Shown: positions 10,967 to 37,200 of the stretch, piece by piece
Numbering within the stretch: position 1 is the first letter of the stretch
How the letters are laid out: every line of letters begins with the position of its first letter
From: an uncultured Spirochaetota bacterium
GTDB taxonomy: Bacteria > Spirochaetota > Spirochaetia > SZUA-6 > Fen-1364
NCBI GenBank assembly: GCA_963845325.1
Contig: CAWJRT010000016.1
Span: 39,780-103,779 of the forward strand
Direction: 5' to 3'
Length of the DNA: 64,000 nucleotides
Program-made: the position numbers and the translations under genes
The notes under the pieces: model-generated
The model's database searches: none
The model's input: the letters and a program-made list of their open reading frames with translations, nothing else
What the model was told of the DNA's origin: nothing

Positions 10967-11267
10967 GAAGAAGTAGCAAGCCTCCCCACGGCGGCGGCTG
11001 CCGCCAGAGGAACCTGGAAGACCTTGTGCGGCGAGCTGCCGCCGCTTTTCAGCACGACGCTTTCGCGGGACAGGCCGAGTGCCTGCGCGAGGACCGGATG
11101 ATTTCCTCGTTCGCCTTTCCCTTTTCCGCCGGCGCCCGACGGACACCGAGAGCTCGCCCGGCCCTGACACCCAGGACGCCGTCCGCGCGCGCGTGCGCCC
11201 TGGCCTTCACGCGCAGAAGCAGAGTTGTGTCTTTCACCGCGTAGAAGGCTGCCCGGTTCCATGAGCA

Positions 11268-18443: not shown

Positions 18444-18453
18444 ATGTCGGCAC

Positions 18454-18482
18454 TTGACAGCAAATGTCAACTTTTATTATAA
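18454..18482 (+). promoter_or_regulatory. Near-consensus sigma70 promoter with an overlapping palindromic operator upstream of abiEi.
   Basis: TTGACA (18454-18459), a 17-nt spacer, then TATAAT (18477-18482). The -35 hexamer belongs to the perfect palindrome TTGACAgcaaaTGTCAA (18454-18470), and aaatgtc is directly repeated at 18442 and 18462. Confidence 0.6.
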
Positions 18483-18502
18483 TCCCGCCGTGAATCCTCA
18501 GG

Positions 18503-19096
18503 ATGACTCCGGCCAAACTGAAGGCGGCCGGAATCGGGGCCTTCTTCCGACCACGTGACCTCGAACCGCTGGAAATAACGTTCGCTGAGCTCCAGCGTCT
18601 TGTTGCAAGCGGCATAGTGGAGAAACTGGGGCGTGGCAGGTACCGGCTTGCGCAGATCGCGCCCAACGAGTTCGAGAGCGTCGCCATGGTGTGTTCGACC
18701 GTCCCTCGCGGCATCGTCTGTCTCCTCTCGGCTCTTCGCATGCATGAAATAGGAACACAATCGCCCCATGAGGTGTGGCTGGCACTCGACCGTAAGGCTC
18801 GAAAGCCAACTCGCTTGCCGGCACAGGTGCGCATCGTCCGCTTTTCCGGACCAATGCTGAGCTATGGCATCCATACCAGGGATATCCTCGGTGTCCCGGT
18901 CCGGCTCACTTCTCCCGCGCGAACGGTGGTCGATTGTTTCCGGTATCGATCGAAGCTCGGAATTGACATTGCGATAGAAGCCCTTCGGGATGCCGTGCGT
19001 TCGCACAAAGCGACCGTCGACGAAATCGTTCGCGCGGCTGAGGTCTGCCGCGCCGGAACGGTTCTCCGCGCATACTTGGAAGCTTTGGAAACATGA
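18503..19096 (+). CDS. abiEi: AbiEi-family antitoxin / transcriptional regulator (type IV TA).
   Basis: A 197-aa protein with an N-terminal wHTH-like region and AbiEi_4-like architecture. It overlaps the downstream nucleotidyltransferase gene by 4 nt. Confidence 0.65.
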   Translation: MTPAKLKAAGIGAFFRPRDLEPLEITFAELQRLVASGIVEKLGRGRYRLAQIAPNEFESVAMVCSTVPRGIVCLLSALRMHEIGTQSPHEVWLALDRKARKPTRLPAQVRIVRFSGPMLSYGIHTRDILGVPVRLTSPARTVVDCFRYRSKLGIDIAIEALRDAVRSHKATVDEIVRAAEVCRAGTVLRAYLEALET

Positions 19097-20040
19097 AGAA
19101 GCGCCCGCCCGTGAATGTCGCGGCATCGGTGAGAGCCCGATTGCAGCAGTACGGGATGAACAAAGGTGAAGACTTCCTGTTCGTGCTTCAGCGCTACGCC
19201 TCCGAACGCTTCCTCTACCGGCTTGGCCGGTCAGCGCACCGAAACAGCTATGTCCTCAAAGGAGCCATGCTCTTCGCGCTTTGGGGCAGCTCCTTCTATC
19301 GTCCGACACGCGATCTCGATTTCACCGGCTACGGCAGCGCCGAGACGGGCGACGTCCTCGCGGAGGTGCGCGACGTGTGCGGCATTCGGGTGCAAGACGA
19401 TGGCCTGTTATTTGACCAAACAAGCCTGACCGCTGAGCCCATTCGCGATGACGCCGAATACCGGGGCCTTCGAATAAAACTACAGGCGACCCTAGGCAGA
19501 GCCCGCATTCAGATGCAGATAGATATCGGATTCGGCAACGCAATCGAACCGCCCGCCATTGATGTCGACTATCCGGCGCTGATTGGCTCGCCCGCCCCGT
19601 CCGTTCGAGCCTATCCTCAGGAAGCTGTTGTGGCAGAGAAGCTTCAAGCGATGGTCGCGCTCGGCGAGCGTAATAGTCGCTACAAGGACTTCTACGACCT
19701 CTGGATCCTGGCAGGACAATTCCCCTTTAATGGAGCACGCCTCAGCGGTGCAATAAATGCCACGTTCACCCGCCGAAGAACCGCGATTTCTGCTGCGCTT
19801 CCTGCCGGCCTCACTCCGCGGTTCTACGTTGATGACGCCCGTGCAGGGCAGTGGCGCGCATACCTGACGCGCAGCAAGGTGCCCGGTGCCCCGCCTGATT
19901 TCGCGGTTGTGGGGGAGTTGCTGCAGTCATTTATAGGCTCAGTGTGGCGGGCGCTGGCGGCGGGCGGCCCGTTCGCAGGCTCGTGGCCACCAGGCGGACC
20001 GTGGTCGCCAGGTCTGATGCACCAGGAGGCGTCGGAGTGA
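19093..20040 (+). CDS. abiEii: AbiEii-family toxin (DUF1814 nucleotidyltransferase).
   Basis: It has the NTase-fold motifs (LKGAMLFALWG...RPTRDLDF; IQMQIDIGFGN) typical of AbiEii/DUF1814. It follows abiEi with an ATGA overlap. Confidence 0.7.
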   Translation: MKKRPPVNVAASVRARLQQYGMNKGEDFLFVLQRYASERFLYRLGRSAHRNSYVLKGAMLFALWGSSFYRPTRDLDFTGYGSAETGDVLAEVRDVCGIRVQDDGLLFDQTSLTAEPIRDDAEYRGLRIKLQATLGRARIQMQIDIGFGNAIEPPAIDVDYPALIGSPAPSVRAYPQEAVVAEKLQAMVALGERNSRYKDFYDLWILAGQFPFNGARLSGAINATFTRRRTAISAALPAGLTPRFYVDDARAGQWRAYLTRSKVPGAPPDFAVVGELLQSFIGSVWRALAAGGPFAGSWPPGGPWSPGLMHQEASE

Positions 20041-21437
20041 GCGAAGTGGGAAGCCCGGGCCTTGCTGGAGCAAAGCGCTACAAGCCGTATCCGGCGTACA
20101 AAGACTCAGGCGTGGAGTGGCTGGGGGAGATACCGGAGCACTGGGAAATGAAGAGGCTGAAAACACGGATCGTCCAATCCGGCAGGTGCACCGCCAGCAA
20201 GGAGAAATTGACTCACTGAAAGGCGAAGTACTTCCGTGCGTATGGCGCAAGGATATGGAGGCACTTGATCTCGATACCAAGGACAAAATAGAGTCAGGAC
20301 AGCTTCGCGACGAGTGCGACCAACCTTGTTTCCGTTGAAGATGATGTTATTGTCGCTAAGATCAGGCATTCTGGTTCATGGCAATCCCGGTTGCAATTGC
20401 GATGGTCTCGAAGTGGGCAGCTGCGAACCATGATCTTGCAGACGTTGATAACGCGAGCACATGGAGCTTGTCCCTGAGTCCTCTTTCTGCTGATCGCATG
20501 AGCGACACGCTGTTCGCTATGGAGAAGGAAGGCGTATGACGTTGCGGGCCTAGAAATGAGTCCAGATTGATTGCAAACACTCGCATGCACCAATACCGCA
20601 GCCACCGGAGCAGCGCGCGATCGTCGCTTTCCTCGATCGAGAGACGGCGAAGATCAGATGCGTTAGTAGCAGCAAACGAAACAGCTGATCGAACTGTTGC
20701 AGGAGAAGCGCGCTCGCCCAAATCACTCAAGCTGTGACCAAGGGTCTCGATCCGGATGCTCCCATGAAGGATTCCGGCGTCGAGTGGCTGGCTGACGATA
20801 CCGGAAAAATGGGAGAGTCAAGCGGTCTTAAGTATCTTTCCACTTTCGTCACCAGCGGCTCGAGAGGATGGGCAGATTACTATTCGGATGATGGCTCAAT
20901 ATTCTTCGCATTGGCAACCTGACAACAGATTCGATAGAAATAGATCTTGCAGACGTCCAGCATGTACACGCTCCTCGCGGCGCCGGAAAACGAAAGAATC
21001 CGCGTCCGAGCGTGTGATATTGTCATTTCCATCACAGCGTTGATAGGAGCAGTTGGTGTGGTGCCCGACGAGCATCGAGGAAGCGTTTCGTGAATCAGCA
21101 TCTGGCACTCGTGCGGCCTGTCACGCGAGCGCGTGAACCCGCGTTGGCTAGGCTATTCCATTCTGTCTGGATTTGGACACGCGCAACTGCACGAGGAGTT
21201 ATATGGCGGAACGAAGGACGGATTCGGACTCGAGGATATCCGAGCACTGACTGATCTTCGTGCCTCCGTCTATCAGTGCAAGAGCAAATTGTCACGAACT
21301 GGACGAAATGAACAGACAACACGACGCTCTTATCGCGGAAGGTCAAAGACGCCATCGAGCGCCTCAAAGAGCTTCGCACCGCCCTCATCTCCGCGGCAGT
21401 CACAGGCAAGATCGACGTGCGGGAGGAGGTTCCATGA
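20036..21437 (+). pseudogene. hsdS: Type I R-M specificity subunit HsdS. It is full length (~1.4 kb) but broken by several frameshifts and in-frame stops in the AT-richer target-recognition domains.
   Basis: TRD1 starts at [23 protein letters not shown] (20036-20219). The central conserved region PPEQRAIVAFLDRETAKI...ELLQEKRA(ALITQAVT)[17 protein letters not shown] is at 20590-20800. The C-terminal conserved LKELRTALISAAVTGKIDVREEV ends at 21437 and overlaps the hsdR ATG. No single frame is open. Confidence 0.6.
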
Positions 21438-24400
21438 GCCCCGAAATCTCCGAGCGCAGCTTCGAAGGGGATATCGAGCGCAGCCTGCTCCGGGCAGGGG
21501 CCTACCGAAGGCATTCCCCAGAAGACTATGACCGCGAGCTCTGTCTCATTCCGGCTGACCTTGTGGATTTCGTGGTGGCAACACAACCGAAGGAGTGGCA
21601 AAAACTCACGCAGCACCACGGCGACAACGTGCGTGAACGCTTTCTCAAGCGCGTCGCGTCTGAGATCGAAAGGCGCGGGGCACTGGATGTGCTTCGAAGC
21701 GGGATCAAGGATTCGGGCTGCAAGTTCAAGCTCGCCTACTTCCCGCCCGCAAGCGGGCTCAATGATGAGATCCGGCGACTTCATGCGGCGAACCTGTTTG
21801 CCGTTGCGCGGCAGGTTCGCTACAGCATCAAGAATGAGAACAGCCTGGACCTTGTGCTGTTTTTGAATGGTATCCCTCTTTTTACGGCGGAGCTGAAAAG
21901 CCCGCTTACGGGCCAGACTGTCGAGGAAGCAATTCGACAGTACAAGACCGATCGCGACACTCGGGAACCGCTCTTTGCCTATGGAAGGTGTCTCGCGCAT
22001 TTCGCCATCGATCCCGACCTGGTATACGTCGCCACGGAGCTCGCGGGAGAGAAGACGCGCTTCCTTCCCTTCAACAAGGGAAAGTTCGGTGGTGCAGGCA
22101 ATCCACCGGTATCTCCAACGCAGGAGGGATACTCAACGAGCTATCTCTGGGAGGACACGTGGTCCCGCGACAGTGTCCTCGACCTGGTGCGTCAGTTCGT
22201 CCATGAGGTGGAAGAAGAAGACGAGAAAGGTCGAAAGACCGGCAGGCGCTTCACGATCTTCCCTCGCTATCAGCAGCTCGATTGCGTGCGAAGGCTCGTC
22301 GCGCATGCGCGTGAAGCAGGCCCAGGGCACCGCTACCTGATCCAGCATTCGGCAGGAAGCGGCAAGAGCTTCACTATCGCTTGGCTTGCTCATCGGTTGG
22401 CCACCCTTCACGATTCCTCGGATCGGAGGGTTTTCGACTCAATCGTGGTCGTTACCGATCGACGCGTTCTCGATCGGCAGCTCCAGACGACAATGCGACA
22501 GTTCGAGCAGACCCTTGGCGTAGTGGAAAACATCGACACGACTTCACGCCAGCTCAAGGACGCCCTTGAAGGTGGAAAGACGATCATTGTTACAACGCTT
22601 CAGAAGTTTCCGGTCATCGTCGATGAGATCGGCGCGCTGCAGGGCAAACGCTTCGCGGTGATCGTCGATGAGGCGCATTCCTCTCAATCGGGAGAAAGCA
22701 CAAAGAGCCTCAAGGCCGTCCTCGCCTCCAAGTCCCTTGAGCAGGCGGAGGCCGAAGAGGCCAGCGCCCAGACGCCAGAAGAGGAGCTTGAAAACGCCGT
22801 CTTGTCAGAAATAGAAAAGCGTGGGCAGCTTCCTAATCTTTCCACTTTCGCGTTTACCGCCACGCCCAAGTCCAAGACGCTCGAGCTCTTCGGGACAAAA
22901 CGCGCGGATGGAAAATTCGAACCTTTCCACCTCTACACCATGCGTCAGGCCATCGAGGAGGGGTTCATCCTCGACGTGCTCGAAAATTACAGCACGTACA
23001 AATCGTACTGGCGACTGCTGAAAAGAATCGAAGCCGACCCGCGCTACGATCGAAAGAAAGCCGAGTACCTGCTCAAATCCTTCGTCGACCTCCATCCGCA
23101 CGCGATCGGGGAGAAAGTACGGATCTGCATGGAACATTTTGCTGCGCAGGCGCAGAATGCAATCGACGGCAAGGCAAAGGCCATGATCGTGACCCGCTCA
23201 CGGCTGCACGCGGTGCGCTTCAAGCTTGCCGCCGACAAGTACATTTCAGAGCACAAACTGCCCTTCAAGGCCCTCGTGGCATTCTCTGGCACCGTCAAGG
23301 ATGGCGGGGAGTCGTACACGGAATCCGGTATGAACGGCTTCCCTGCGGCACAAACGGCCAGGTCTTTCGATCGGCCGGAGTACAGGTTTCTCATAGTGGC
23401 CAACAAGTTTCAGACCGGCTTTGACCAGCCGCTTCTTCTCGCCATGTACGTTGACAAGAAACTCGGGGGCGTCAACGCGGTGCAGACCCTTTCCCGGCTC
23501 AATCGCACGCATTCGGGCAAGAAGGGTACGATAGTCATCGATTTCGCCAATGAAGCCGATCAGATCAAAATAGCCTTCGAACCATATTTCGAGACCACGC
23601 TCCTGTCCGAGGCGACTGATCCGAATCTGCTCTATGAGATTCAAACGCGGCTCGCAGCTTTCCCGGTTTATACGCCTGCCGACATTCACAACTTTGCTAT
23701 CCTCTACTTCAATGCCGCGACGAAACAGGACCGATTGTATTCCGCACTGGCCCCCGCGGTCACTCGCTTCCAGGCGCTATCCCAGGCTGAGCGGGAGGAA
23801 TTCCGCGGGCAGCTGACCGACTATGTGCGGCTCTATGCATTTCTGGCGCAGGTGCTCCCGTTTGCCGATTCGGACCTGGAGAAGTTCTATGCTTTTGCGC
23901 GGTACCTGCGGCGGCTGCTTCCTCCCGATCGCGCCGAGCTTCCGCGGGAGGTGCAGCAGAACATCGACATGGAGTCCTATCGCATCCAACGAACCGGCGG
24001 TGGAAAGATCGCACTGGAGCGGAGGCCAGGCATCCTGGAGCCAGTTGGGACCAAGGACAACCATGGGCCATGGACAGAGGAACTGGAGATGCTTTCGCGT
24101 ATCATTGCGATGCTGAATGAAAGATTCGGGCTCAACCTCGGCCCCGAGCATCGCCTGACCCTGGGTCAGATGATGGAAAAGCTCGACGGTGACGCAGCGC
24201 TTGATGCCGCCGCACGGGTCAACACCCGTGAGAACGTCCGTCTGACGTTCGATCAAAAAGTTGAGCGTGTGATCCAGGAGATCGTCGATTCCAACTTCGA
24301 GCTGTACAAGCGTATCACCGACGACCGCGCTTTTGGAGAAGCAATCAAGAACTTCCTTTTCGATCAGTACCTGCGCGCGCATCGAAACGCGGAAGAGCTA

Positions 24401-24871
24401 ATCAAGCGCGGTGAATCGAAGACGCTCGAGCTGAAGTCGACGCTTCGATGGAACGTGAAAGAGGACCGCCAGGACGACAAGGGGGTCACTCACGCCGCCT
24501 TGAAAAGCATCGCCGCCTTCCTCAACACGGAAGGAGGCGACTTGCTGGTCGGCGTTGCCAACGACGGCGCCATCGTCGGGATTGAGCGCGACCGGCTGGA
24601 AAACGACGACAAGTTCATGCTTCATCTCGCGCAGGTTGTCCGCAACGGCCTTGGCGACCGCGCAGGGACGTGCATCGACCCCAAGACGCAGATTGTGCAA
24701 GGAAAAACTGTCTGCGTGGTGAGCTGCCAACGAAGTCCCGAGCCGGTGTTCCTGAAATGGAAAGGGATGGAATCAAACCCAGACGGAGACTTCTTTGTGA
24801 GAAGCGGTCCAGGGACGGTGAAGCTCTCGCCTGAAAGCGCCAAGGAATACATAAAGACCCGCTTCAAATAA
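21434..24871 (+). CDS. hsdR: Type I restriction enzyme R subunit HsdR with a C-terminal AlbA_2 / Schlafen-like (divergent AAA) DNA-binding domain.
   Basis: It has the HsdR N-terminal nuclease region, the SF2 helicase motifs (LIQHSAGSGKSF Walker A, VIVDEAHSSQSG DEAH box) and HsdR C-domains. The last ~150 aa (KSTLRWNV...LNTEGGDLLVGVANDGAIVGIERD...DKFMLHLAQVV) match the AlbA_2/PF04326 pattern. A strong SD (GGAGGAGG) precedes the ATG. Confidence 0.9.
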   Translation: MSPEISERSFEGDIERSLLRAGAYRRHSPEDYDRELCLIPADLVDFVVATQPKEWQKLTQHHGDNVRERFLKRVASEIERRGALDVLRSGIKDSGCKFKLAYFPPASGLNDEIRRLHAANLFAVARQVRYSIKNENSLDLVLFLNGIPLFTAELKSPLTGQTVEEAIRQYKTDRDTREPLFAYGRCLAHFAIDPDLVYVATELAGEKTRFLPFNKGKFGGAGNPPVSPTQEGYSTSYLWEDTWSRDSVLDLVRQFVHEVEEEDEKGRKTGRRFTIFPRYQQLDCVRRLVAHAREAGPGHRYLIQHSAGSGKSFTIAWLAHRLATLHDSSDRRVFDSIVVVTDRRVLDRQLQTTMRQFEQTLGVVENIDTTSRQLKDALEGGKTIIVTTLQKFPVIVDEIGALQGKRFAVIVDEAHSSQSGESTKSLKAVLASKSLEQAEAEEASAQTPEEELENAVLSEIEKRGQLPNLSTFAFTATPKSKTLELFGTKRADGKFEPFHLYTMRQAIEEGFILDVLENYSTYKSYWRLLKRIEADPRYDRKKAEYLLKSFVDLHPHAIGEKVRICMEHFAAQAQNAIDGKAKAMIVTRSRLHAVRFKLAADKYISEHKLPFKALVAFSGTVKDGGESYTESGMNGFPAAQTARSFDRPEYRFLIVANKFQTGFDQPLLLAMYVDKKLGGVNAVQTLSRLNRTHSGKKGTIVIDFANEADQIKIAFEPYFETTLLSEATDPNLLYEIQTRLAAFPVYTPADIHNFAILYFNAATKQDRLYSALAPAVTRFQALSQAEREEFRGQLTDYVRLYAFLAQVLPFADSDLEKFYAFARYLRRLLPPDRAELPREVQQNIDMESYRIQRTGGGKIALERRPGILEPVGTKDNHGPWTEELEMLSRIIAMLNERFGLNLGPEHRLTLGQMMEKLDGDAALDAAARVNTRENVRLTFDQKVERVIQEIVDSNFELYKRITDDRAFGEAIKNFLFDQYLRAHRNAEELIKRGESKTLELKSTLRWNVKEDRQDDKGVTHAALKSIAAFLNTEGGDLLVGVANDGAIVGIERDRLENDDKFMLHLAQVVRNGLGDRAGTCIDPKTQIVQGKTVCVVSCQRSPEPVFLKWKGMESNPDGDFFVRSGPGTVKLSPESAKEYIKTRFK

Positions 24872-25005: not shown

Positions 25006-26106
25006 CTACGGCTTCTGCAGCTTTTCCAGCAGCTCGCCGATCCCGAGGTTCTTGATCCCCATCCGCTGGGCGCGGGTAAGCACTTCCAGCGCCTTGTCCC
25101 TCTTGTCAAGCGCGAGCCAGCTCTGGGCCACCTCGATGTAGAGCCGGGGGTTCTTCGCGTCGTTCACCATGAGCCCCGAAAGACTCTCGATTGCCTCCAG
25201 GTAGTTGCCCTTTTCCTTGTTGATGAGCGCGAGACCCAGCACGGCGTAGCTGTCGAACTCGATGTTCAGTGCCTTGCTGTAATAGTCACGGGCGGTATCG
25301 AGCTGGTTCATCGCCCGATAGGAATCCCCGATCCGCGTGAGGATCACCTTGTTATCTGGGTCAGCGTCCAGGATCTTCTGCCAGTAGAAAAGGGACTCCT
25401 GGGGATCGTTCATGCCCCGGTAGCAGTCCGCAAGGCCGAAGAGCGCGTAGAAATTGTTCGGCTGGATGTCCAGGGCCTTCTTGAAATACGGGATGCCCTT
25501 CTCGTAGGTCTTCAGCTTGCGGTAGCAGTTTCCGATGGACGTGAGCACCCAGATGTTCTTCGGATCCTTTTCGTGCATGCGTTCCCAGTAGGTGAGCGCT
25601 TCACGGTACTCCTTGAGATCGAAGTGGAGGTAGCCCAGCCCGGTCAGGGCGTAGGGGTTGCCGGGATCGATCTCCAGGATTTTATGGTAGATTTCCTTCG
25701 ACCTGCTGAAATCCAGGACCTTGCGATAGGCATCTGCGATCCTCGTCAGGACCGTCACGTCGCTGTCCCCCTGGGCAAGGTACTTTTCCCATATCTCGAT
25801 TGCCCGGTGAAACTGTTTCAGCGATCGATAGCTGTCGGCCAGCCCGACAAGGGCGTACTTGTTGCCCACGTGGTAGCCGAGGCATTCCTCGTAGTAACGG
25901 ATGGCTTCGTGGTAGGACTTGCGCTTGCGCGCCGCGTCTCCCATCCCGACAAGGGCGTAGTTGTTCTGCGGCTCGACCTCCAGGATGCGGCGGAAGTTCT
26001 CCTCCGCCTCTGCAATGTGGTCTTCCTTGAGGAGCTGGTAGCCCCGCTTGGAAAGCTCTGAAATCGAAACCGGAACGGGTCCCGGTACTTTTTCTTCACT
26101 GCTCAT
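25006..26106 (-). CDS. TPR-repeat protein.
   Basis: 366 aa made of consecutive 34-aa TPR units (W-LG-Y-A-F-A-P signature, e.g. YALVGLADSYRSLKQFHRAIEIWEKYL). Confidence 0.8.
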   Translation of the reverse strand: MSSEEKVPGPVPVSISELSKRGYQLLKEDHIAEAEENFRRILEVEPQNNYALVGMGDAARKRKSYHEAIRYYEECLGYHVGNKYALVGLADSYRSLKQFHRAIEIWEKYLAQGDSDVTVLTRIADAYRKVLDFSRSKEIYHKILEIDPGNPYALTGLGYLHFDLKEYREALTYWERMHEKDPKNIWVLTSIGNCYRKLKTYEKGIPYFKKALDIQPNNFYALFGLADCYRGMNDPQESLFYWQKILDADPDNKVILTRIGDSYRAMNQLDTARDYYSKALNIEFDSYAVLGLALINKEKGNYLEAIESLSGLMVNDAKNPRLYIEVAQSWLALDKRDKALEVLTRAQRMGIKNLGIGELLEKLQKP

Positions 26107-26449
26107 GCAATTCCGTTTTCCCTTCTGCCAGCCAGTGTTTCACTACCTGCGCGATCTTCTCTACGACATCGGCAGTCCTGTCCGGAGCAGGCGCGACCCA
26201 GTACAATTTCAGCGCTTCGAGGGGCTTCCCCTCCTTGAGGTACCGGTCTCCGACGCGAATGAGACCATCAGAGTACTTTGTTGTGACAAAAATTCGCTGG
26301 GCGAGAGCCAACTCCCCCCTGTTGTACAGCTCGTTACCCTTCCGGATGAGTGCAGCCCTCTTCTCACGGGGGAGAGGCGCGGCGTGTTCCACACCAATTT
26401 TCAAAAAACCGCCGGAAGGCAACTTTTTCAGGATGTCATGTGCGCTCAT
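26096..26449 (-). CDS. Hypothetical protein, probably co-transcribed with the TPR gene.
   Basis: ~118-aa ORF with an 11-nt overlap with the TPR gene start. No recognisable domain. Confidence 0.4.
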   Translation of the reverse strand: MSAHDILKKLPSGGFLKIGVEHAAPLPREKRAALIRKGNELYNRGELALAQRIFVTTKYSDGLIRVGDRYLKEGKPLEALKLYWVAPAPDRTADVVEKIAQVVKHWLAEGKTELHEQ

Positions 26450-27172: not shown

Positions 27173-28924
27173 CTACTCCCTCTCGTGGAGGAGAACCTTC
27201 AGCTGCTTGATCTCGTTGACCAGCTTGTCGCGGCTCATTTCCCGGAAGCGCCGCGGCACCATCTCGCGGCTCGTGCACTCGAGGACGGCCACGAGGTTCT
27301 GCAGCTCGATTTCGTGCGGGTACGCGGGGGGCATGAAGTCCTGGATGGTTTCCTCCAGGTCGCCCCTGGTGACAAAGACGTGGTTGTTCATGGCGGAGAG
27401 GAACTTGGCGCGGATGAGCACCGATTCGAGGTCCGCGCCGGAGAACTCGTACTTGTACCGGCGGAACAGCTCCGCGACGTTCGTTTTCTGCATGCGCAGC
27501 GAGAGCTTCTTCACGAGCGTGGAGAACAGGTCCTCCTTTTCATCGATGGTCTCGGGGTAAAACAGGGCCAAGTGCTCCTCGGCCCTTCCCTGCCGCTTGA
27601 GGTCGATCGGGAGGAGGTCGGGCCGGCAGGTGATGAGGAACCAGATGATCTTGCCCCGGTACTCGGTGTTTCCCATGAATGATGCGATCTGGGCAAAGAT
27701 GCGGTTGCTCGTCCCCGAGTCACCGTCCTGGTTTCTGTCCCCCAGAAAGGCGTCTGCCTCGTCGATCATCACACCGACGGGCGCCATGGCCTTGAGGATA
27801 TTCAGGATCTTTTCGAGGTTGCTCTCGGTGACTCCCTGCCACTTGGAACGGAAGTTGCGGAACTTCACAATGGGGATGCCGATCTCCCCCGTGAATGCGG
27901 TCACCATGAAGCTCTTCCCCGTGCCGACCGGACCGGCAATCAGGTAGCCCATTGGCAGGACGTCGAACCGGCTGTCGCGAATTGCCCGGGCGGCGCTGCG
28001 GAAGCGCTTCTTGACGAAATCGTGGCCCGAAACGGCGGAAAGGTCATGCTCGCTTTCGATGAACTCCAGGAGACCGACTGCCTCCGCCTCGATGATCTGC
28101 TTCTTCTTTTCCTTGAGGTACGAGAGGTTGATCTCCCGGTCTTCCTGGAAGCTCTCAGCCGAGAGCTGGTTGAGGTTCACCAGGTTGAGACCGCTGGTGA
28201 TCCCGGCGAACTCGGGAATGGTGAGGGAACCTTCGAGGAGCAGCTTGCCGCTCCTGTCCAGGTAGTGCAGGAAGCTCTCGCGCACCTTCTCATCCGGGAT
28301 GGGGATATTCACCTTGATGGCGCTGGGTGAGCGCACGATGGTGGGGTTGAGATCAGAGAGGTTCTCCGTCAGCAGGATGATCGAGACGTCGCCCTGCGTG
28401 AAAATGGGGTCGTTCGCCCACCGATTGAGAGTGACGAGGCAGTACCGGTCCTCGTCGGTATAGCGCGAGATGTCGGTATTGGGGACAACGGTTTCGGAGT
28501 AGTCGATGATGAGGACGATCCTCTTGCTGAGCGTGATGTTGGCGTAGAAATACCGCTCCAGCTGCGTGAGCGCGCGAACCGGGTTGCGCGAGAGCAGGCT
28601 CCCGGGCGTCGCCTTGGGCGACAACTGCTTCATCTTTGCCAGGTAGTCGTGCTTCATCTCGGGTTTGCAGAAGCTCACCCCCGAGGAACGGTCGTAGAAC
28701 ACGATGATGTCACGGTTGCCGAACAGCACCTCTGCGACATAATCCTGGATCTTGGCGAAGTTGAACTCCCCCTCCTTCATCTTGTGAGGGAGAAAATCGC
28801 GGATGTTGCCGGAGAGCAGGTAGAGGTTCGCGGTTTTCGAGCAGTACTTGTACGAAAGCTCCTGCGCCCAGGCAGGAAGCACCTTGATAAAGGGCAAATT
28901 CTTGACAATGAGCTGTTCGGCCAT
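27173..28924 (-). CDS. AAA+ ATPase with a ~330-aa N-terminal domain of unknown function.
   Basis: The C-terminal AAA module has Walker A GPVGTGKS, Walker B VGVMIDEAD and a sensor-2/arginine-finger region (FSGADLESV). The N-terminal two thirds has no recognisable motif. Confidence 0.75.
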   Translation of the reverse strand: MAEQLIVKNLPFIKVLPAWAQELSYKYCSKTANLYLLSGNIRDFLPHKMKEGEFNFAKIQDYVAEVLFGNRDIIVFYDRSSGVSFCKPEMKHDYLAKMKQLSPKATPGSLLSRNPVRALTQLERYFYANITLSKRIVLIIDYSETVVPNTDISRYTDEDRYCLVTLNRWANDPIFTQGDVSIILLTENLSDLNPTIVRSPSAIKVNIPIPDEKVRESFLHYLDRSGKLLLEGSLTIPEFAGITSGLNLVNLNQLSAESFQEDREINLSYLKEKKKQIIEAEAVGLLEFIESEHDLSAVSGHDFVKKRFRSAARAIRDSRFDVLPMGYLIAGPVGTGKSFMVTAFTGEIGIPIVKFRNFRSKWQGVTESNLEKILNILKAMAPVGVMIDEADAFLGDRNQDGDSGTSNRIFAQIASFMGNTEYRGKIIWFLITCRPDLLPIDLKRQGRAEEHLALFYPETIDEKEDLFSTLVKKLSLRMQKTNVAELFRRYKYEFSGADLESVLIRAKFLSAMNNHVFVTRGDLEETIQDFMPPAYPHEIELQNLVAVLECTSREMVPRRFREMSRDKLVNEIKQLKVLLHERE

Positions 28925-29057
28925 CGTTCCCCTCCCCAGGCGAATGACGAACTGAAGACAAGTATAGGCCCAAGGGAGAGAACCGTCAATTCATGACCGC
29001 GGTATCTGGGGAAAAGGGCACGCAGTGCCGGCCGCGCCATTGCGGTGCGCGAAGTGC

Positions 29058-32000
29058 TCAGACCAGCTTGCGCTCCCGGGCTTCTTCCATGATCATGCGA
29101 TTCCACTTGTTCCGCCAGAGAAACGAGCTTCTCTCGCCGGGTGCGTCGATCCTGCTCGCGCGCTCCTGGAGCGTCTTGAGGCTCTTGCTCAGCACCGTCA
29201 CCTTGTCGTCGACTTCCTCGGAACCCGCCTCGGGAAGCACCTGGGAGTACAGGTAGTTGAACCACGCCGCGCGGGGATCCTCCTCGAGAGATTTCTGCCC
29301 CCGCGTGAGCTGGTGCAGCTCACGGATTGCCTCGTCGCGGACCCCTCGCAGTCCCAGAAGGTACGCGCGCATTCCCAGGAGGCTTCTCTGCAGCAGCGCG
29401 CTTCCGCGGCTGAGCTTGAAGCACCGCCCTTCGACCGGAGAGAAGCCGTCCTGCCACGTCACCCCCTCCGGTGCCGGGAAGCGCGACTCCGTGGTGAGCG
29501 CGAGCGCCCGCTCGATGAACAGGCTCGCGTTTTCCAGCGTGCCCGAGAAGAGGCAGCCCTCGGCCTGGAAGAGGAGGACCTCCCGGGTCTGCTCCGAGAG
29601 GCTTTCGAGGAGACGCGTGCCCGCGGCGATCTCGTCCCGGTGCAGGAATGTCCTTCCCAGCCACGCGCGGAGAACGGGCAACGCCTCGTCCAGTGAATAC
29701 AGTGTTGCCAGGCACAGGCACGACTGGAGGTCCAGGGAGCATTCGTCGTACGCGCCCACCTGGAAGCGGGTGCGGGCCTTCAGGAAAAGAAGGAACAGCT
29801 CAACCTCCCGCCGAAAGAGCTTCCGCGCCGCTCCCAGCCCCTGCTCGATGACGGAGAGGCACTGTGTGTATCGGCCGTCAATGAAGAGGCAGTTGGAGAG
29901 GTAGGCCAGGGTCCAGAGCATTCCCGGGCGCGTCCTGGGCCTCGTGGCAGAGGCGCTGCGAGAGTGCAAGGTACTCGACGGCCTCTCCCAGCCGGCCCTC
30001 GGCGAGCATGGCAGCTCCCAGCCAGAGGTAGCACGCTCTCTCCCCCCTCAGGACGGGTGCATCCCCGTTGTCGTCGCGCGGCTCCTGGTAAAGAAGGAGC
30101 GCCTTCTTGAGCTCGTCCAGGGCCATCGTCGCATTCCCGCCCGAGAGGAAGTATTTCCCCCTCTCGATCAGCACTTCGCCCCGCAGCGACGGGTTGAGAT
30201 CGGCGGAGGCCAGTTTTTTTGCTTCGGTCTGCGCCGTCTCCGCGGCCTCTTCATTGCGCTGGAGAAGCGCCGCCCGCAGCCTGCCCAGAGCGGCAACCGC
30301 CGCGAGGTCCCGGGCCTGCGCCGCGGTGGGAGCCACGGAAAACTCGAGCGTCCGGGGATCGCAGAATGCGGCAGCACCCGCCGGATCGCACTCGTCGAGC
30401 TTGCGCCTGATGATTTCAGGCAGGATGCGGAGGGCGGGCCCGGTCTTCCCGTTGCGGGCAAGAAAAATGAAGAGAAGGACCGGGTGGCGGTATCTTCCCG
30501 TTTCCCAGAGCGCCGTCATGTGCGCGATGAAGCGCTCCCTGAACGCAGTTCCCTCCTTGTCCAGGAGCTCCTCGAGCTTCCGGCGGAGCGTCGGAAACCG
30601 TGGGATGAGGTCGCGGTCGTCGGCTATCAATCCCGCGGCCAGCAGCTCGGAAAGGGAACGCGCCACGGTGGCTGCGTCGAAACCGGCATCCCCGAGGAAC
30701 GAGAGAAACCCCTGTCGGTCGAGCAGCCCGCCCGCAAGGTACAGCGCGTACAGGAGAAGATAGGTGTCATCGTGCAGGTTGCGGATCAGGAACCAGGAGA
30801 CCGAGAGAGGGTTCACCGGGAGCGCCGGTCCGTCTTCACCGCCGCTGCTCCATTCGTGGCCGCTCGGGGTCGAACGGATGCGACCGGTCCGGTCCAGGTA
30901 CTGCAGGTAGGCGACCACGGAAATATACAAGCCCCCCGACCTCCGCCTCAGCCTGCGGGTCAGGGACTCCGGCATGGCAAGGCCGGGATACAGGTGCTGG
31001 GCGAGGGATCGTATCTCCCGTTTTCCCATGGGGTGGACGTAGAGGCGATGCAGGTCGAGCCCGGGCAGGTCACCCGATGTCGGGGGCGAGATGCTGGAAA
31101 CAACCGGCACGAAACCGGGGCTTGCCAGCAGATCATCGAACAGCCGTGCGATGACCTTGCGGGCGGCCGGGTGGTACCCGTCGATTCCGTCGCAGATGAA
31201 GAGGGCCGGGCTGAGCGATTCAGCGGCCATCCTGGTCCAGGCCAGCAGGTACAGCCGGTAGCCGAGATAAAAATCATCCAGGATCCGGTCCGGCAGGGGG
31301 TGCGCCTCTCCTTTTCCGCCGTGAACGGCAGGGTCCTGGAGCCAGGTCAGCAGCGGCCCGACATCTCCCCACGCGGCCAGCTCGGGGCCGTGCAGGAGGG
31401 AAGGGACGCGGCCAAGGAGGGAGGGGATGAGACTGGACAGGAACGGATGCAGCGGTGAACGCCGCTTGAAAATCGTGCGCATCCTCAGGCCCGGCGCTGC
31501 CCCGGTGCGAAGCAGCCGCGCGGCAAGCTCACCGAGCAGAGCGGTTTTCCCCACACCGGATGGCCCGTGCACCCAAAGCACGTCCCGTCCCTCGCCGAGG
31601 TTCAGCCTCGGCGAAACAAGATCCAGCGCACGCGTCACCAGGGTTTCACGGATCCAGGCCCGCGCCGCGCCGGGAGGGGTCCCGCGGCATCCGCAGGGCG
31701 TCGGAGCCCGAGCACCCGGTACAGGGAGCCGGACATCTCGCAATCAAACGAATCGGCAAAAAGAGCCGCGCACTCGGAAGCGATCCACAGCTGGTCATCG
31801 ACCTCGGCGCCCTCGAGGAGCCGCTGGGTGGAGTCGGCGGGGAATCCCCCCGGCCCTTCCTTCAGCGGCGCCACGACGACGGAGAATCCGAAGAGCTCGG
31901 ACCGGCGAGCGGCAAGCGAATCACGGACCCTCCACGCCGCGGCTGCCGCGGCCCCCGCGTCCAGCTCCTCCTCCGGTCCCAGCTCAGCAAGCCACACGCC

Positions 32001-32135
32001 GTTCCCTGACTGTCGGGCCGGGGAAGCGAGGGAGCCGAGAGTTGCCGCGAGCGCCGCCTCCAGCCCGGGAAGGCCGTCGGCCCGCAGGCGCACGAGCTGC
32101 CGGTAATTGCGCAACTCGGCAATAACATATACCAT
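29058..32135 (-). CDS. Large STAND-class P-loop NTPase with C-terminal TPR-like repeats (~1,000 aa), with one or two frameshifts. The N-terminal ~150-aa domain is unidentified.
   Basis: ORF 31635..32585 (N-terminal part MVYVIAELRNYRQ...FGFSVVVAPL), ORF 29878..31743 (Walker A VHGPSGVGKTALLGELAARLL, then helical repeats) and ORF 29058..29969 (further TPR-like helices) are contiguous on the minus strand. The frame changes at ~31700 and ~29930. Confidence 0.6.
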
Positions 32136-32183
32136 GGCCCGCATTATCCACGTTTGCGCCGGAGAGGGAAAGGGACGAGCAGC

Positions 32184-32748
32184 ATGGAGCCTCTGGAGTC
32201 CCTCCAGATGAAAGAAAAGAGAAGCCGGACCATCAGGCTCTCGGTGAATCCCAGGGCGGATTTCCGGGAGGTCATCCGGACCCTTGAATCGATTGTCCTT
32301 CCGCCTGTCCGCGTAAGCAATGAGCACGTCCGGTTCGCCGTCCTCGAGCTCCTGAACAATTCCATCCGCGCGCACAAGGAGAAGGGAGAGCCGAGGGACA
32401 TCTCGGTTGACCTTACGCATACCGACGGCAGGCTCGTGGTGACAATTCGGGACTATGGCGGCGGATTCGACCCGGGGAAGCTCCCCTACGGGCTGGAGGA
32501 AGATCCCGCCGTTCTTGACCTGCACTCCCCAGCGTTCGAGGAGTACCAGAAGACGGAACGGGTTCAAGCGGTTCGGCATGGGCATCTACATTGCGAAAAA
32601 GACCTTCGACGAGTTCCGGCTTCTTTTCCTGGATGAGCGCGACCAGCCCATTGCGTGGACGGCGGGAAAGACAACGGGAACGCTCATCACTCTCTCCGTG
32701 GGCGCGCGGCTGGACCGTTCTGCATCGGAGGCCGCCAGTGGGAAGTGA
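32184..32748 (+). CDS. GHKL-family serine-protein kinase / anti-sigma-factor-like protein (HATPase_c), with one frameshift at ~32560.
   Basis: It has the N-box HVRFAVLELLNNSIRAH, then RDYGGGFDP and the G-box (K)RFGMGIYIAKKTFDEF. Confidence 0.6.
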
Positions 32749-33079
32749 GCAGCGAAAGGACCTCCGCGTCCCCAGCTACGCAAAAGCTGTCCTTGCCGAG
32801 GGGCACATCCCCGGCTACATCCGTGACCTGAGCAGCTCCGGCTGCCAGGTCGCATTCATCCAGCCGGTTGCTGCCGCGGTGGGCGACGTCATAACCGTCC
32901 AGGTGATCGCCGAGCACGATCCGACCATTCCGCTGTTCCACGTCCGGCTTCGAATCAAGCGTGTGGTCGAAGACCCGCCGTGGCACTCGCTGGGCGCCCA
33001 GGTTGAAACGATACGCGATCCGGCGGAAGCGGCAGCTTTCGAGCGGCTGGTCGCGTACTACAGCGCGCCCGCCCAATAG
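32738..33079 (+). CDS. PilZ-domain protein (putative c-di-GMP receptor). Its start overlaps the stop of the upstream kinase gene.
   Basis: It has the RxxxR...(D/N)xSxxG pattern (RKDLRVP ... IRDLSSSGCQV). A GTG start at 32738 overlaps the upstream TGA. Confidence 0.5.
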   Translation: MGSEQRKDLRVPSYAKAVLAEGHIPGYIRDLSSSGCQVAFIQPVAAAVGDVITVQVIAEHDPTIPLFHVRLRIKRVVEDPPWHSLGAQVETIRDPAEAAAFERLVAYYSAPAQ

Positions 33080-33682: not shown

Positions 33683-33711
33683 GACCATTGAATCCCCTTC
33701 TCCTATGCTCT
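33683..33711 (+). promoter_or_regulatory. Putative sigma70 promoter for the 33713 gene. The transcript would be leaderless or have a very short leader.
   Basis: TTGACC (33683-33688), a 17-nt spacer, then TATGCT (33706-33711), with the start codon within ~10 nt. Confidence 0.3.
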
Positions 33712-33712
33712 G

Positions 33713-34324
33713 GTGCACATGACCGCGGCGTTCCTCCTGCTCCTCCTCCTGTTTGCTGCACCGGAAAGGCTCCCGGCGCAGGCAGAGTCCCGGCAGACAG
33801 CCACGCAGGCGGATTCGCTTCTCACGGCGGTCTCCTCCTTCGCTCCCCGGCGTGAAGGCTCACCGGCAGAAGGAGCTCTCCTGGACTGGCTCGGTGTCCG
33901 CCTGGCGGAAATGGGCATGCACGCCGTTCCCTTTGATTTCAGCCGCTCGGATTTCGAGCACTCATTTTCCCGGTGCCTGAGAGTCGACGTCCCGGGCCGT
34001 TCCCGTGACACCGTGATTCTCGCCGTGCCTGTCGACGCGCCCCTGGACGCGGGTCCCGGCCAGGACGGGTCCGTCAACGTGGCACTCGCCCTCGACCTCC
34101 TGGGGCACGTGAGGGGAACCACACCGCCCTTCAGCCTCATCGTGCTTTTCCTCGGAGCCGAGTACGGAAACACGGATTCCTACCCGATGGGGAGTACTCT
34201 CTTTCTCCGGGACTACCAGCCCGACTACCGCGCAGCCGTCGTGTATCTCAATCTCCGCGAGGTGCCGGACAGGATACTCGTCCGGGGGGCGGCCGGGGCA
34301 TCGTCAGCCCGTTCTGGCTCATGA
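33713..34324 (+). CDS. Secreted hypothetical protein with a signal peptide.
   Basis: Signal peptide MTAAFLLLLLLFAAPERLPAQA. The stop overlaps the next gene (ATGA). Confidence 0.5.
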   Translation: MHMTAAFLLLLLLFAAPERLPAQAESRQTATQADSLLTAVSSFAPRREGSPAEGALLDWLGVRLAEMGMHAVPFDFSRSDFEHSFSRCLRVDVPGRSRDTVILAVPVDAPLDAGPGQDGSVNVALALDLLGHVRGTTPPFSLIVLFLGAEYGNTDSYPMGSTLFLRDYQPDYRAAVVYLNLREVPDRILVRGAAGASSARSGS

Positions 34325-35843
34325 GCCGTTGCGTGGATTCACTGCATGCAGCGCAGGTGCCCTACCAGCTGCAGGCGGATGAAGTGCAGGCGTTCCGGCT
34401 CGGGGCGACCGAGGAAAAGACCCTCATTGAGCCGTACCTCCGGGCCGGCTACCCCTCGATCGGCCTCGAAGGGCAGTCCGCCGCACCGGGGGCGCACGCG
34501 CCTCCCGGGATGCTTTCGTCCCTTTCCGCTTTCCTGCTCGCGTTTCTCGACGCCGGCCGCGGCGGAATCCCCGAGGAGTGGGACCGGCACTACCTGCTGG
34601 TGCAGGCTGGTGACATGTCGCTGATCGTCGGGGAGAAAGCCTACGTGGCGGTTCTTGGAGGGGTGCTTGCCGCGGCGCTTTTTTTTGCCCTCGTCTTCGT
34701 ACGGCGGCTGAAAAAGTACGTGCGGACCCTCGCGCGGAACATCGGCGCGATCCTTCCGCTGGCGGCTCTGACATTCCTTTTTCTCGCGGCGGGCACCTAC
34801 GCCCTGCGAGGCATCCTTGCTCTTCGCGCGTTCCCGGGGTTGTGGAGGTATGCGCCCGTCGAGTTTCTCGCGCTGAAGGCGTGCATTGCCCTGTTCCTGT
34901 ACGCGGCGCTCTACAATCCTTTCCGTCGCCTGCCTTTTCCAAGGAAGGGGAGTTTTTACTCCGCCGCGGCGTTGTTCTTCCTCCTCGTGGAGATCGCCGT
35001 TGTCGCCGTGTTCGATATCTCCTTCACGTCCTATTTCCTCTGGGCTTTCCTTCTTGTTTTCTTCTCAACGCTTGCGCGGAACAGGTGGGTCAAGCTCGCC
35101 CTTGTGCTGCCCGCGCCGTTCTGGGGGATCCGGGGCATCATCAGGATTTTCATGGTGCCGGCACTGCCGTTCTGCCGGATCCTCACGCTCTCGCCCGTAC
35201 TTGGCAACCTCGTGGTTGCTGGGGCCGCCCTTCCCTTCATCCTCGTGCTGCTGAGGCTGGGGCTTGCATTCCCCGGGACGGGGCTGCTGCGACGAGGCGT
35301 CCGCGAGGTGCTCCTCGCAGGTCTCCTCCTGGCCGGGGGGGGGTGCTTGCCATCCACCTCGCAATGTTCTCACCATTTTCGCCGGGCAATCCACAGCCCG
35401 TCACCGCAATCCAGACCGTCGTGGTGGGCTCGTCCGGACGCACTTCCTCAACCTCGCTTTCGATTGAAAGCCCTGCGCCCGTGAGCGGCATTTCGGTCTC
35501 GACTCCCGGGGGGTCGCGGCCGGTGCCGTCGCACTGGCAGGGCAGCCCGATCTCACTCATCCGGGCGGCCTCCCCCGTCCAGGTGAGCGTTGAAGCCGGG
35601 CAGTTCCTCCAGCAGCAGAATCTCGTGCTCACGATGAAGATGCCGTCCCGCCCCCGTTCCTTCGCCCTGAGCATCGAGTCCCCGGATGATTTCGTGCTCT
35701 TTGACAGCTCATTCCCCGCGGTCCGACTCGGTCCCCGCACCTACAGGCTCCTCGTGGGGGCCTTCCCGCCGGACCCGCTCTCCGTCCAGGTGTCTCTTCC
35801 CACCGGGCAGGCCTTCCGCTTCACTGCTCACCGCGGAGTTTGA
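34321..35843 (+). CDS. Polytopic membrane protein of unknown function, with a frameshift at ~35300-35400.
   Basis: A soluble N-terminal region is followed by at least eight hydrophobic helices (e.g. YVAVLGGVLAAALFFALVFV). The C-terminal non-membrane domain continues in ORF 34842..35843. Confidence 0.45.
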
Positions 35844-35933
35844 CTCTCCCCTCATCGCGGTTGAAGTAAGGGGGCGGTCCGACGTGCGCATCGCCACGAG
35901 GGTGCGCGTTGTGCGCACGCTGGAGATCAGGAC

Positions 35934-37200
35934 GTGAGCGCGCGGAATGCCACGGGGCCCCGTGGCGGTCAGGAGATCCGTCCTCTCATTTTTCACGTCG
36001 ACCTTGACGCCTTCTACGCCTCGGTGGAGCAGCGCGACGACCCGTCGCTGAAGGGCCGCCCGGTCATCGTCGGCGCCGCGCCGGGGCGCCGCGGCGTCGT
36101 GTCGGCCTGCTCGTACGAGGCGCGGCGCTTCGGCATCCACTCGGCAATGCCGATCTCCCAGGCCTATCGCCGCTGTCCCCAGGGCGCGTACCTCCCCGTG
36201 CGGATGGAGCGCTACCTGGAAGTGTCCCGTAATGTCATGGAGATTCTCTCGACGTTCACGCCGCACATGCAGCAGATCTCGGTGGACGAAGCGTTCCTGG
36301 ACCTCACGGGAACCGAACGGCTGTTCGGCCCCGCGCGGGACACCGGGGCGAGGCTGAAGGCCGAGGTGCTGTCACGCACAGGCCTGGCGATCTCGGTGGG
36401 AATCGGGCCGAACAAGTACCTGGCGAAAATGGCCACAAACTCGGGCAAGCCTGACGGACTGGTGGAAGTGCTCGCGGAGTGACGCAGAGGCGTTTCTTGA
36501 CGGGGTGGCATTGAAGGACCTCTGGGGAATCGGGGAGAAGACGCTGCAGCGCCTGACGGAGCTGAACATCACATCCGTCCGCCAGCTGCGCGGGATTCCC
36601 GCAGCCCGAGCTCTCCCGGCTGCTGGGGCAGGCGGCGTCAGGATTCCTTGCCGCCGTGACACGGGGATCGGACCCGGGCATCTTCTCCGAGGAACCCCGC
36701 AGCCGTTCCCTTTCCACCGAGACGACCTTCGAGCATGACCGCAAGGACCGGACCGGGATCGAGCGGGTGCTCCTGGAGCTTTCCCACCAGGTGATGTTCC
36801 GCATGAGGGAGGGCGGGTGGAAATCAAGGACCGTGGCGCTGAAGCTGCGCTTCCACGATTTCACGACGGTAAGCGCGCAGCGAACGATCAAGCACTGGAT
36901 CACTTCCGCGGACGAGCTGCACGGGGTCGCCGTCGAGCTGCTCGCGTCCCGGTGGATGGGCGGCACGCCGGTGCGGCTGGTGGGAATAGGGCTGTCCAAC
37001 CTTACCGCAGTGGAGGTGCAGGATCAGCTGGAGCTTTTCACAGACGGATCCACCCGCCGGGGAAAGGTGGAGGAAGCGGTGTTCCGCCTGCAGCAGAAGA
37101 TGGGGGACGGTACACTGACAAAAGCCAGCCTCATGCGCCCCGAAACCCGGCACCCCGAGACCAAGCGGCCGGCCTTCAAGAAGAAGCCGCCTCCGCGTCG
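35934..37200 (+). CDS. dinB: DNA polymerase IV (Y-family), with two frameshifts. The 3' end is uncertain.
   Basis: It has IFHVDLDAFYASVEQRDDP, SYEARRFGI and SVDEAFLD, then the little-finger region (RLVGIGLSNL...QLELF). The parts are in ORFs 35934..36482, 36505..36738 and 36656..37378. Confidence 0.85.

Follow-up and report, generated by a model that had tools for sequence, protein, structure and literature searches.

Adjacent AAA+ ATPase and cyclase-homology STAND NTPase genes in an uncultured spirochaete are probably independent neighbours in a conserved gene order

The stretch of DNA analysed here (the window; 64,000 nt) comes from contig CAWJRT010000016.1 of an uncultured Spirochaetota bacterium (GTDB SZUA-6; Fen-1364), and contains two co-oriented ATPase genes lying side by side: AAA, encoding an AAA+ ATPase, and STAND, encoding a STAND-type P-loop NTPase. 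We consider it likely that the two are functionally independent, and that they are neighbours only through an ancestral gene order kept in one branch of uncultured Spirochaetia. An earlier reading of the window from its letters alone (the sequence-only reading) had correctly described the two genes as co-oriented and had suggested that they constitute one regulatory or defence module, but the distribution of STAND among related loci and the conserved promoter that AAA appears to possess do not support such a module. The genes and the promoter element on which this question turns are as follows.

27173..28924, minus strand: AAA gene, predicted tandem AAA+ ATPase; an intact open reading frame (ORF) of 583 aa
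28961..28989, minus strand: sigma-70-like promoter element TTGACG-N17-TATACT, in the STAND-AAA gap ~36 nt upstream of the AAA start; 10/12 matches
29058..32135, minus strand: STAND gene (cyclase-like domain, AAA_16 NTPase, TPR); ~1,025 aa after frame repair, three ORF pieces here
32154..32748, plus strand: GHKL gene, RsbW-like HATPase_c_2 (E = 8e-11); frameshifted between 32476 and 32552
32729..33079, plus strand: PilZ gene, overlapping the 3' end of the GHKL gene; Pfam PilZ E = 2e-6

Gene order and co-occurrence of AAA and STAND

Related loci were collected by scanning GTDB with the AAA protein, and the 80 best species loci found, all from Spirochaetota, were sorted by the position of STAND relative to AAA. 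Eighteen of these have too little upstream sequence, and the 62 that are informative fall into three groups.

17 species loci: STAND directly upstream of AAA, with a gap of 56-162 nt and never overlapping
8 species loci: STAND 0.8-8.9 kb upstream of AAA, with other genes between
37 species loci: no STAND in the available upstream sequence (3.6-10 kb)

The comparison of neighbourhoods thus shows no consistent co-occurrence of the two genes. In the three interrupted loci that were examined, STAND and AAA are separated by unrelated genes, namely an MFS-HEAT gene on the opposite strand, an AAA_14/DUF4143 gene, and one for a periplasmic sugar-binding protein. Loci L005, L006, and L008 have a Yip1 and MacAB/TolC-like cluster downstream of STAND instead of AAA, and in L004 it is a GHMP kinase gene and an MFS transporter gene that precede AAA.

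The flanking genes follow a conserved order. Upstream of STAND this reads PEGA, RMD1-3, dinB, a ~745-aa gene, a nitroreductase gene, and then PilZ and GHKL on the opposite strand, while downstream of AAA it reads hisB (sometimes absent), a 117-aa gene, a 365-aa TPR gene, and alaS on the opposite strand. The STAND/AAA junction is the breakpoint between these two conserved gene blocks. The two proteins also diverge at different rates, such that in L039-L048 AAA is ~77% identical and STAND ~30%.

A conserved promoter element upstream of AAA

Many relatives have a promoter-like sequence, TTGACN-17/18-TATACT, 25-36 nt ahead of the start codon of AAA, whatever gene is found upstream, and its frequency in the three groups of loci and in a control is as follows.

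STAND adjacent: 16/17 loci
STAND nearby but interrupted: 7/8 loci
No STAND upstream: 20/37 loci
Random 120-nt windows (control): 2.9%

Because the element is conserved regardless of the upstream gene, AAA appears to carry its own promoter, and transcription of the gene would start from this conserved sigma-70-type sequence.

The AAA protein

The sequence-only reading had identified AAA as an intact AAA+ gene with Walker A and B motifs and an arginine finger, and the 583-aa ORF, its Pfam match, and its motifs confirm this. The parts of the protein are listed here, all on the minus strand.

27953..28924: N-terminal 324 aa, predicted degenerate AAA+ module (pseudo-D1), from AlphaFold (AF2) and Foldseek
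27173..27952: active classical AAA module (D2) and C-terminal lid, from Pfam, PDB sequence matches, and motifs
27911-27934: Walker A, GPVGTGKS (aa 331-338)
27824-27847: aromatic pore loop, KWQG (aa 361-364)
27752-27772: Walker B, VMIDEAD (aa 385-391)
27575-27598: arginines of the second region of homology (SRH), KRQGR (aa 443-447)

Residues 328-453 match Pfam AAA (PF00004) with E = 3e-22 (79.8 bits against a cut-off of 21.2), and this above-threshold profile, together with the Walker A and B motifs, the pore-loop aromatic, and the SRH arginines, places the protein among the classical AAA ATPases. The best PDB sequence matches are VAT, Cdc48, and p97, with E values down to 7e-33. NCBIfam yields only generic subfamily matches, far under their cut-offs.

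The N-terminal domain has no Pfam match at E <= 10, and its fold, like that of the STAND N-terminal domain described below, was recovered solely by structure prediction and Foldseek. An AF2 model built from a 68-sequence alignment (pLDDT 85.5) matches bacterial TRIP13, which is the top match, the D1 domain of p97, and proteasome Rpt subunits in the PDB (E ~1e-8, prob 1.0). It has no Walker A motif, with LLSGNIRDF (aa 36-44; family consensus FLLHGNVRDL) standing in its place, and retains remnants of Walker B (VLIIDYSE, aa 137-144) and sensor 1 (IILLTEN, aa 182-188). The domain had been taken to be novel; the sequence-only reading had also allowed that it might match a known fold, and this is largely what we find, in that it resembles a degenerate AAA+ module of a family that spans many phyla, the protein being 71-98% identical over about equal match lengths in the 80 best loci.

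From the model, the AAA protein has two AAA+ ATPase rings in tandem, of which the first is degenerate and the second active. Like Cdc48, p97, VAT, and the actinobacterial Cdc48-like ATPase, it has two stacked AAA+ modules, the second of which is closest by sequence to VAT, Cdc48, and p97 and likewise carries an aromatic pore loop and SRH arginines. It differs from Cdc48/p97/VAT in that the first module lacks Walker A and is probably inactive, in being shorter (583 aa), and in having no N-terminal double-psi-barrel or other separate adaptor-binding domain, the model starting directly with the pseudo-AAA module. It is therefore not a type II (tandem) Cdc48/p97 protein in the strict sense: a second AAA+ fold is present, but the Walker A and N-domain are lacking. 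The protein would most likely act as a hexamer, threading protein substrates and unfolding or remodelling them, with the pseudo-AAA domain probably serving as a structural or adaptor ring.

A widespread AAA family

The AAA protein, which we take to be of a housekeeping type, is a member of a widespread, strongly conserved, and apparently unstudied tandem AAA+ family. Its homologues form more than 120 clusters at 75-99% identity, nearly all of them 583 aa long, and the closest relatives include metagenome-assembled genomes (MAGs) from fens, peat, and soils. An exhaustive HMMER search with the N-terminal domain found 1,222 clusters at 50% identity, 561 with E <= 1e-10, and many of the full-length matches are 560-600 aa with an identical layout. 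Named members come from Sericytochromatia, Myxococcota, Alpha- and Deltaproteobacteria, Oligoflexia, Elusimicrobiota, and Bacteroidia, and all are labelled only generically as "AAA family ATPase". Ycf46 was suggested by a generic JGI name, but the AAA protein is not filed there and no Ycf46 name occurs among the named matches listed, which include Sericytochromatia and one MAG labelled 'Cyanobacteria bacterium'.

In other phyla the homologue is found in varied housekeeping contexts. It lies directly upstream of, and co-oriented with, rplU-rpmA-obg followed by rsfS in an alphaproteobacterial MAG (L090:5001-8534) and in a Myxococcota MAG (L091:5001-8401), and this adjacency in two phyla hints at a ribosome-biogenesis connection. 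In one 5.2-Mb genome it follows an isochorismatase-family gene.

Several further observations concern this family. In a Sericytochromatia MAG (L092:4286-6701) the homologue starts 10 nt past a PspA/IM30 (PspA_IM30) gene. PspA/IM30 is bacterial ESCRT-III-like, and the arrangement recalls ESCRT-III/Vps4 pairs; the gene at the equivalent position in the Myxococcota locus L091 is not PspA-like, and we set this link aside as what may be a one-off. Among proteins P0189, P0197, P0202, P0381-P0393, and P0274, some members of ~820 aa have an extra N-terminal extension of 250-280 aa, and there is one cluster of 987-aa proteins, one member of which is annotated by its source as 'intein/homing endonuclease'.

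Downstream of AAA in the window lies a 365-aa multi-TPR gene (25006-26106, minus strand) that overlaps the 117-aa gene (26099-26449, minus strand). This pair follows AAA in most related loci, either directly (L039, L048) or after hisB, and identity of the TPR protein is 87-98% between close relatives, falling to 53-64% in deeper lineages. Because it is conserved about as strongly as the AAA protein, we regard it as a better candidate partner for AAA than STAND.

Do AAA and STAND form one module?

In a module of the kind proposed, regulatory or antiviral, STAND would act as the sensor and the AAA+ unfoldase as effector or recycling factor. The co-orientation and the short gap of the 17 adjacent loci, which include lineages at ~30% STAND identity, are what would be expected of such a pair; TRIP13 heads the Foldseek list for the pseudo-AAA domain, and PADLOC matches the AAA protein weakly to TRIP13 and IetA. 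These PADLOC matches, however, do not exceed 35 bits and are confined to the generic ATPase domain (aa 327-551), and none of the three STAND pieces matches any PADLOC family at E <= 0.01. STAND is moreover absent from the available upstream sequence in 37 of the 62 informative species and separated from AAA by unrelated genes in eight, it occurs without the AAA gene in L005, L006, and L008, AAA appears to have a conserved promoter of its own, and the AAA family extends to phyla in which the searches run here found no homologue of this STAND family. We therefore regard a single module as very unlikely. A relationship to the TRIP13 of CBASS systems was also considered and rejected, as neither HORMA nor CD-NTase genes lie nearby and members of the AAA family occur in housekeeping contexts across phyla.

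The STAND protein

The STAND product was described in the sequence-only reading as an ORF of ~1,000 aa, but no continuous ORF of that size exists in the window, and that description had read across two frameshifts. The gene is instead divided among three ORF pieces on the minus strand (32135 to ~31690, 31743-29878, and 29969-29058), occupying two reading frames; the middle piece is 621 aa long and holds the sequence VHGPSGVGKT. An intact orthologue of 1,024 aa is encoded at L001:4855-7929, and was used to locate the frameshifts by alignment. The features of the gene, all on the minus strand, are as follows.

31701..32135: N-terminal cyclase-homology domain (aa 1-145), predicted by AF2 and Foldseek
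31171..31566: core of the P-loop domain, AAA_16 match
31543-31566: Walker A, GPSGVGKT (aa 191-198 of the repaired protein)
31171-31203: Walker-B-like, AAA_16-style, LFICDGIDGYH (LFICDGID at aa 312-319)
29058..30400: C-terminal helical/TPR-like repeats (~aa 580-1025), sub-cut-off TPR matches
31674..31700: frameshift zone 1, net -1 nt relative to the orthologue, adjoining a GGGAGGGG/CCCCTCCC run
29923..29927: frameshift 2, +1 nt at 29925, with GGG instead of GG; the original frame is regained

The assignment of a STAND-type P-loop NTPase is upheld by a Pfam AAA_16 match above threshold in the 621-aa piece (37.7 bits against a cut-off of 32.6), with Walker A and B both present; four intact homologues score 35.6-39.4 bits, also above the cut-off. 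The family alignment is nearly invariant at several positions, among them G, P, G, G, and K of Walker A and C387, H394, and P395 around Walker B. The extensive TPR-like repeats that had been described stand as a helical, TPR-like region, with weak support in sequence: over the C-terminal ~450 aa of intact homologues TPR_MalT reaches 23.7-30.2 bits against a cut-off of 45, TPR_12 and TPR_2 are likewise under cut-off, and the family profile matches TPR proteins in the PDB weakly (E = 4.5e-4). This is nonetheless the best conserved part of the protein, the last 289 aa being 91% identical to L001.

With the frame repaired, 64 homologue clusters at 44-90% identity were found, of which 57 are 973-1,049 aa long; some homologues in other assemblies are shortened to 643-807 aa. 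All of the source names that give an organism are Spirochaetia or Spirochaetes MAGs, and tblastn identified further orthologues at 27-36% identity in deeper spirochaete lineages. The STAND family has so far been found only in Spirochaetia assemblies.

Frameshifts in STAND and elsewhere in the window

The window is GC-rich (0.56-0.68), and comparison with 13 proteins encoded on L001 revealed nine frameshifts relative to the orthologues, spread over six of the 13 genes: three in the ~745-aa gene, two in STAND, and one each in GHKL, EamA, PBP1, and PF1765. The seven frameshifts outside STAND, five of which are at G/C runs, lie at these positions:

11094-11124
12937-12959
13694-13697
32476-32552
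34282-34285
35310-35337
35825-35827

At seven of the nine junctions, both of those in STAND among them, a run of 3-9 G or C bases lies within or adjoins the junction (for example G6, G9, and C5, and short runs at the two STAND sites). We conclude that the two frameshifts splitting STAND are most likely homopolymer assembly errors, rather than STAND-specific decay, because the PBP1 gene is broken in the same way. Homopolymer indel errors seem to be systematic in the assembly as a whole, and any ORF call in the window should therefore be treated with caution.

It looks quite unlikely that STAND is instead a genuine pseudogene here, recently inactivated by the two frameshifts. The two frame-breaking indels are certainly present in the sequence as given, STAND is dispensable in many relatives, and the shortened homologues of other assemblies would be consistent with loss. 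Against this, each indel is next to a short run of G or C (GGG/CCC and GGGAGGGG), most of the seven frameshifts found in neighbouring genes (PBP1 among these genes) lie at G/C runs of up to nine bases, and the -1 and +1 shifts cancel exactly. tblastn recovers the whole L001 orthologue from the three pieces (66%, 79%, and 91% identity), giving a frame-corrected product 66-91% identical to it that contains no internal stops and no other sign of decay despite a 23% difference in DNA sequence between this region and the nearest long contig. We also rejected programmed frameshifting, since each orthologue is encoded by a single ORF and short G/C runs lie next to the shift sites.

A cyclase-homology domain at the N-terminus of STAND

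The N-terminal module of STAND had been left without an assignment, and the protein had been said to lack an obvious effector; neither statement holds, since structure prediction gives the N-terminal 145 aa the fold of a class III nucleotide cyclase. An AF2 model based on a 58-sequence alignment (pLDDT 90.8) has 67 Foldseek hits in the PDB at E <= 1e-3, and the top 50 are all class III adenylyl/guanylyl cyclases (AC/GC), examples being Ma1120, CyaB, CyaC, Rv1625c, Rv1900c, and mammalian AC/GC (E ~1e-5, prob 1.0, TM-score (TMq) 0.54-0.68, ~12% sequence identity). Sequence profiles do not reveal this relationship: Pfam at E <= 10, including Guanylate_cyc, finds nothing in the domain of the window protein or of three homologues, and a profile of the domain searched against PDB sequences found no cyclase, only chance matches (terpene synthase, cytochrome c').

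The cyclase-like domain is probably non-catalytic, as its motifs and the predicted secondary structure suggest. Its most conserved motif, AELRNYRQLxRLR, is at the place of the cyclase FxDIxGFT (beta1), with E7 in 53 of the 58 sequences where the first metal-binding Asp would be expected; the beta2-beta3 hairpin reads x-G (G46) where cyclases carry the "GD" of the second Asp; and the alignment has no conserved Asn of the transition-state Asn/Arg pair ahead of the helix bearing R102/R104.

The STAND protein is a new divergent representative of an already known architecture. The mycobacterial protein Rv0386 consists of cyclase, ATPase, TPR, and LuxR parts (bioRxiv 10.1101/2024.03.06.583649). STAND shares with proteins of the Rv0386/Rv1358/Rv2488c type the identical order of class III cyclase fold, AAA_16/MalT-like NTPase, and TPR-like repeats, and is of similar size to Rv0386 (~1,025 aa and 1,085 aa). 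It differs in having no C-terminal LuxR helix-turn-helix, in a cyclase domain that is too divergent for Pfam Guanylate_cyc and in which canonical motifs for metal binding and the transition state are not recognisable (Rv0386, by contrast, is catalytically active as a cyclase), and in that the homologues found are all from Spirochaetia assemblies. With the MalT/AfsR STAND NTPases it has in common an AAA_16-type oligomerisation domain followed by a MalT-like TPR region (TPR_MalT being sub-threshold), and presumably the logic of ligand-triggered oligomerisation, but its output would be an N-terminal cyclase-fold module and not a DNA-binding domain. STAND has no significant sequence match to solved STAND proteins in the PDB.

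These parts suggest how the protein could work. The C-terminal TPR-like repeats would recognise a ligand or a protein partner, upon which the AAA_16 nucleotide-binding domain may oligomerise and bring the N-terminal cyclase-homology domains together. Because class III cyclase domains work as dimers, pairing of the domains could be the output, or else a step of nucleotide binding or dimerisation should the domain prove to be a pseudo-enzyme.

The neighbouring GHKL and PilZ genes

Divergently upstream of STAND are the GHKL gene and the PilZ gene that overlaps it, and both identifications made in the sequence-only reading are borne out by the HATPase_c_2 and PilZ matches given above. The start codons of GHKL and STAND are <50 nt apart. 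The PilZ protein is a single-domain protein that shares with the single-domain PilZ receptors of cyclic di-GMP (c-di-GMP) the canonical binding motifs RxxxR (RKDLR) and DxSxxG (DLSSSG). GHKL has the HATPase_c_2 domain in common with RsbW/SpoIIAB-type kinases, but unlike in those systems there is no adjacent gene for a STAS-domain antagonist or a sigma factor, and the kinase gene overlaps PilZ and faces STAND across the short intergenic space. We know of no described system in which a GHKL-PilZ overlap faces a STAND gene.

The two orthologues likewise overlap in L001 and L005, and the pair is divergently upstream in most STAND-bearing loci, even at ~30% STAND identity; L008, L025, and L059 lack the pair, and in L007/L018 and L020 no GHKL was detected. 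STAND is associated more often with GHKL-PilZ than with AAA. If STAND has a functional partner, it is plausibly the GHKL Ser-kinase/PilZ pair and not AAA, and this pair is the only plausible regulatory link for STAND that we recognise. A signalling node in which STAND would control the cyclase-like domain, alongside a Ser-kinase and a c-di-GMP receptor, is a reasonable hypothesis. One could go further and propose that cyclase-fold STAND, GHKL, and PilZ form an undescribed second-messenger node of Spirochaetia, in which STAND oligomerisation would control an atypical or pseudo-cyclase domain, and that AAA separately represents a bacteria-wide, uncharacterised pseudo-D1/active-D2 unfoldase family with a possible link to ribosome biogenesis; we hold this fuller scheme to be rather unlikely as it stands.

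The question of a defence function

A role for STAND in signal transduction or in antiviral defence had been suggested, and of these the signal-transducing one remains reasonable, whereas the antiviral one fits poorly with the absence of any PADLOC match to STAND and with its housekeeping flanks. The conserved genes flanking AAA and STAND are dinB, the nitroreductase gene, hisB, and alaS, and dinB, the ~745-aa gene, and the nitroreductase gene recur upstream in most loci with enough sequence, down to ~27% STAND identity, so that the pair is not located in a defence island.

A defence island is nevertheless present in the window, an 8.7-kb segment of lower GC content (0.56-0.60) at 16326-24871, between alaS and the 365-aa TPR gene.

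16326-18443: HsdM
19093-20040: AbiEii toxin
21260-24871: HsdR, 1,203 aa, with a C-terminal Schlafen/AlbA_2 domain

In L001-L003 and L009 alaS and the TPR gene are directly adjacent, and this type I restriction-modification (R-M)/AbiE island is therefore a strain-specific insertion unrelated to AAA and STAND.

We consider it exceedingly unlikely that STAND serves as an antiviral sensor of the Avs kind, with its cyclase domain producing a nucleotide alarm for PilZ and GHKL to read. STAND does resemble Avs proteins in its three-part layout, in which a STAND NTPase lies between an effector-like N-terminal module and a C-terminal sensor made of repeats; its sequence changes rapidly (27-90% identity within the clade), its N-terminal module has a nucleotide-cyclase fold, a nucleotide-binding PilZ is encoded next door, and the R-M/AbiE island is 2-10 kb away in this strain. 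However, that module does not belong to the nuclease, protease, SIR2, or TIR domains and no canonical cyclase catalytic motifs are recognisable in it, PADLOC finds no match, and the locus is a stable chromosomal position within a housekeeping synteny block rather than a variable or defence island, the R-M/AbiE island being strain-specific and lacking in relatives. The PilZ motifs, furthermore, are those for c-di-GMP, which class III cyclases do not make.

The ~745-aa conserved protein (33692-35934, plus strand), encoded between the nitroreductase gene and dinB, has no Pfam domain and is the one whose gene contains three frameshifts here. It is present in most of the STAND-bearing loci examined, at 32-78% identity.

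Discussion

We have described here an AAA+ ATPase gene and a STAND NTPase gene that probably function independently of one another and owe their adjacency to an ancestral gene order. Several points weigh against this reading. The adjacency of STAND and AAA is kept where STAND is only 27-31% identical (L039-L048, L059), which outlasts the usual persistence of random neighbours, although those same genomes keep the entire block of 20 kb, with dinB, the nitroreductase gene, and alaS. The STAND-AAA gap shows no terminator-like site, and there may be transcriptional read-through from STAND to AAA. AAA is labelled 'housekeeping' from its conservation and its gene context, the cyclase domain is called non-catalytic from motifs and predicted secondary structure and not from residue-level superposition, and the frameshifts in STAND could be genuine in this strain.

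The main effect of these findings is to remove a false lead, in that the apparent two-ATPase module would be an accident of synteny. A diverged cyclase-domain STAND protein beside GHKL and PilZ offers a testable handle on second-messenger signalling in uncultured spirochaetes, and the function of the widely distributed tandem AAA+ family would be worth determining.

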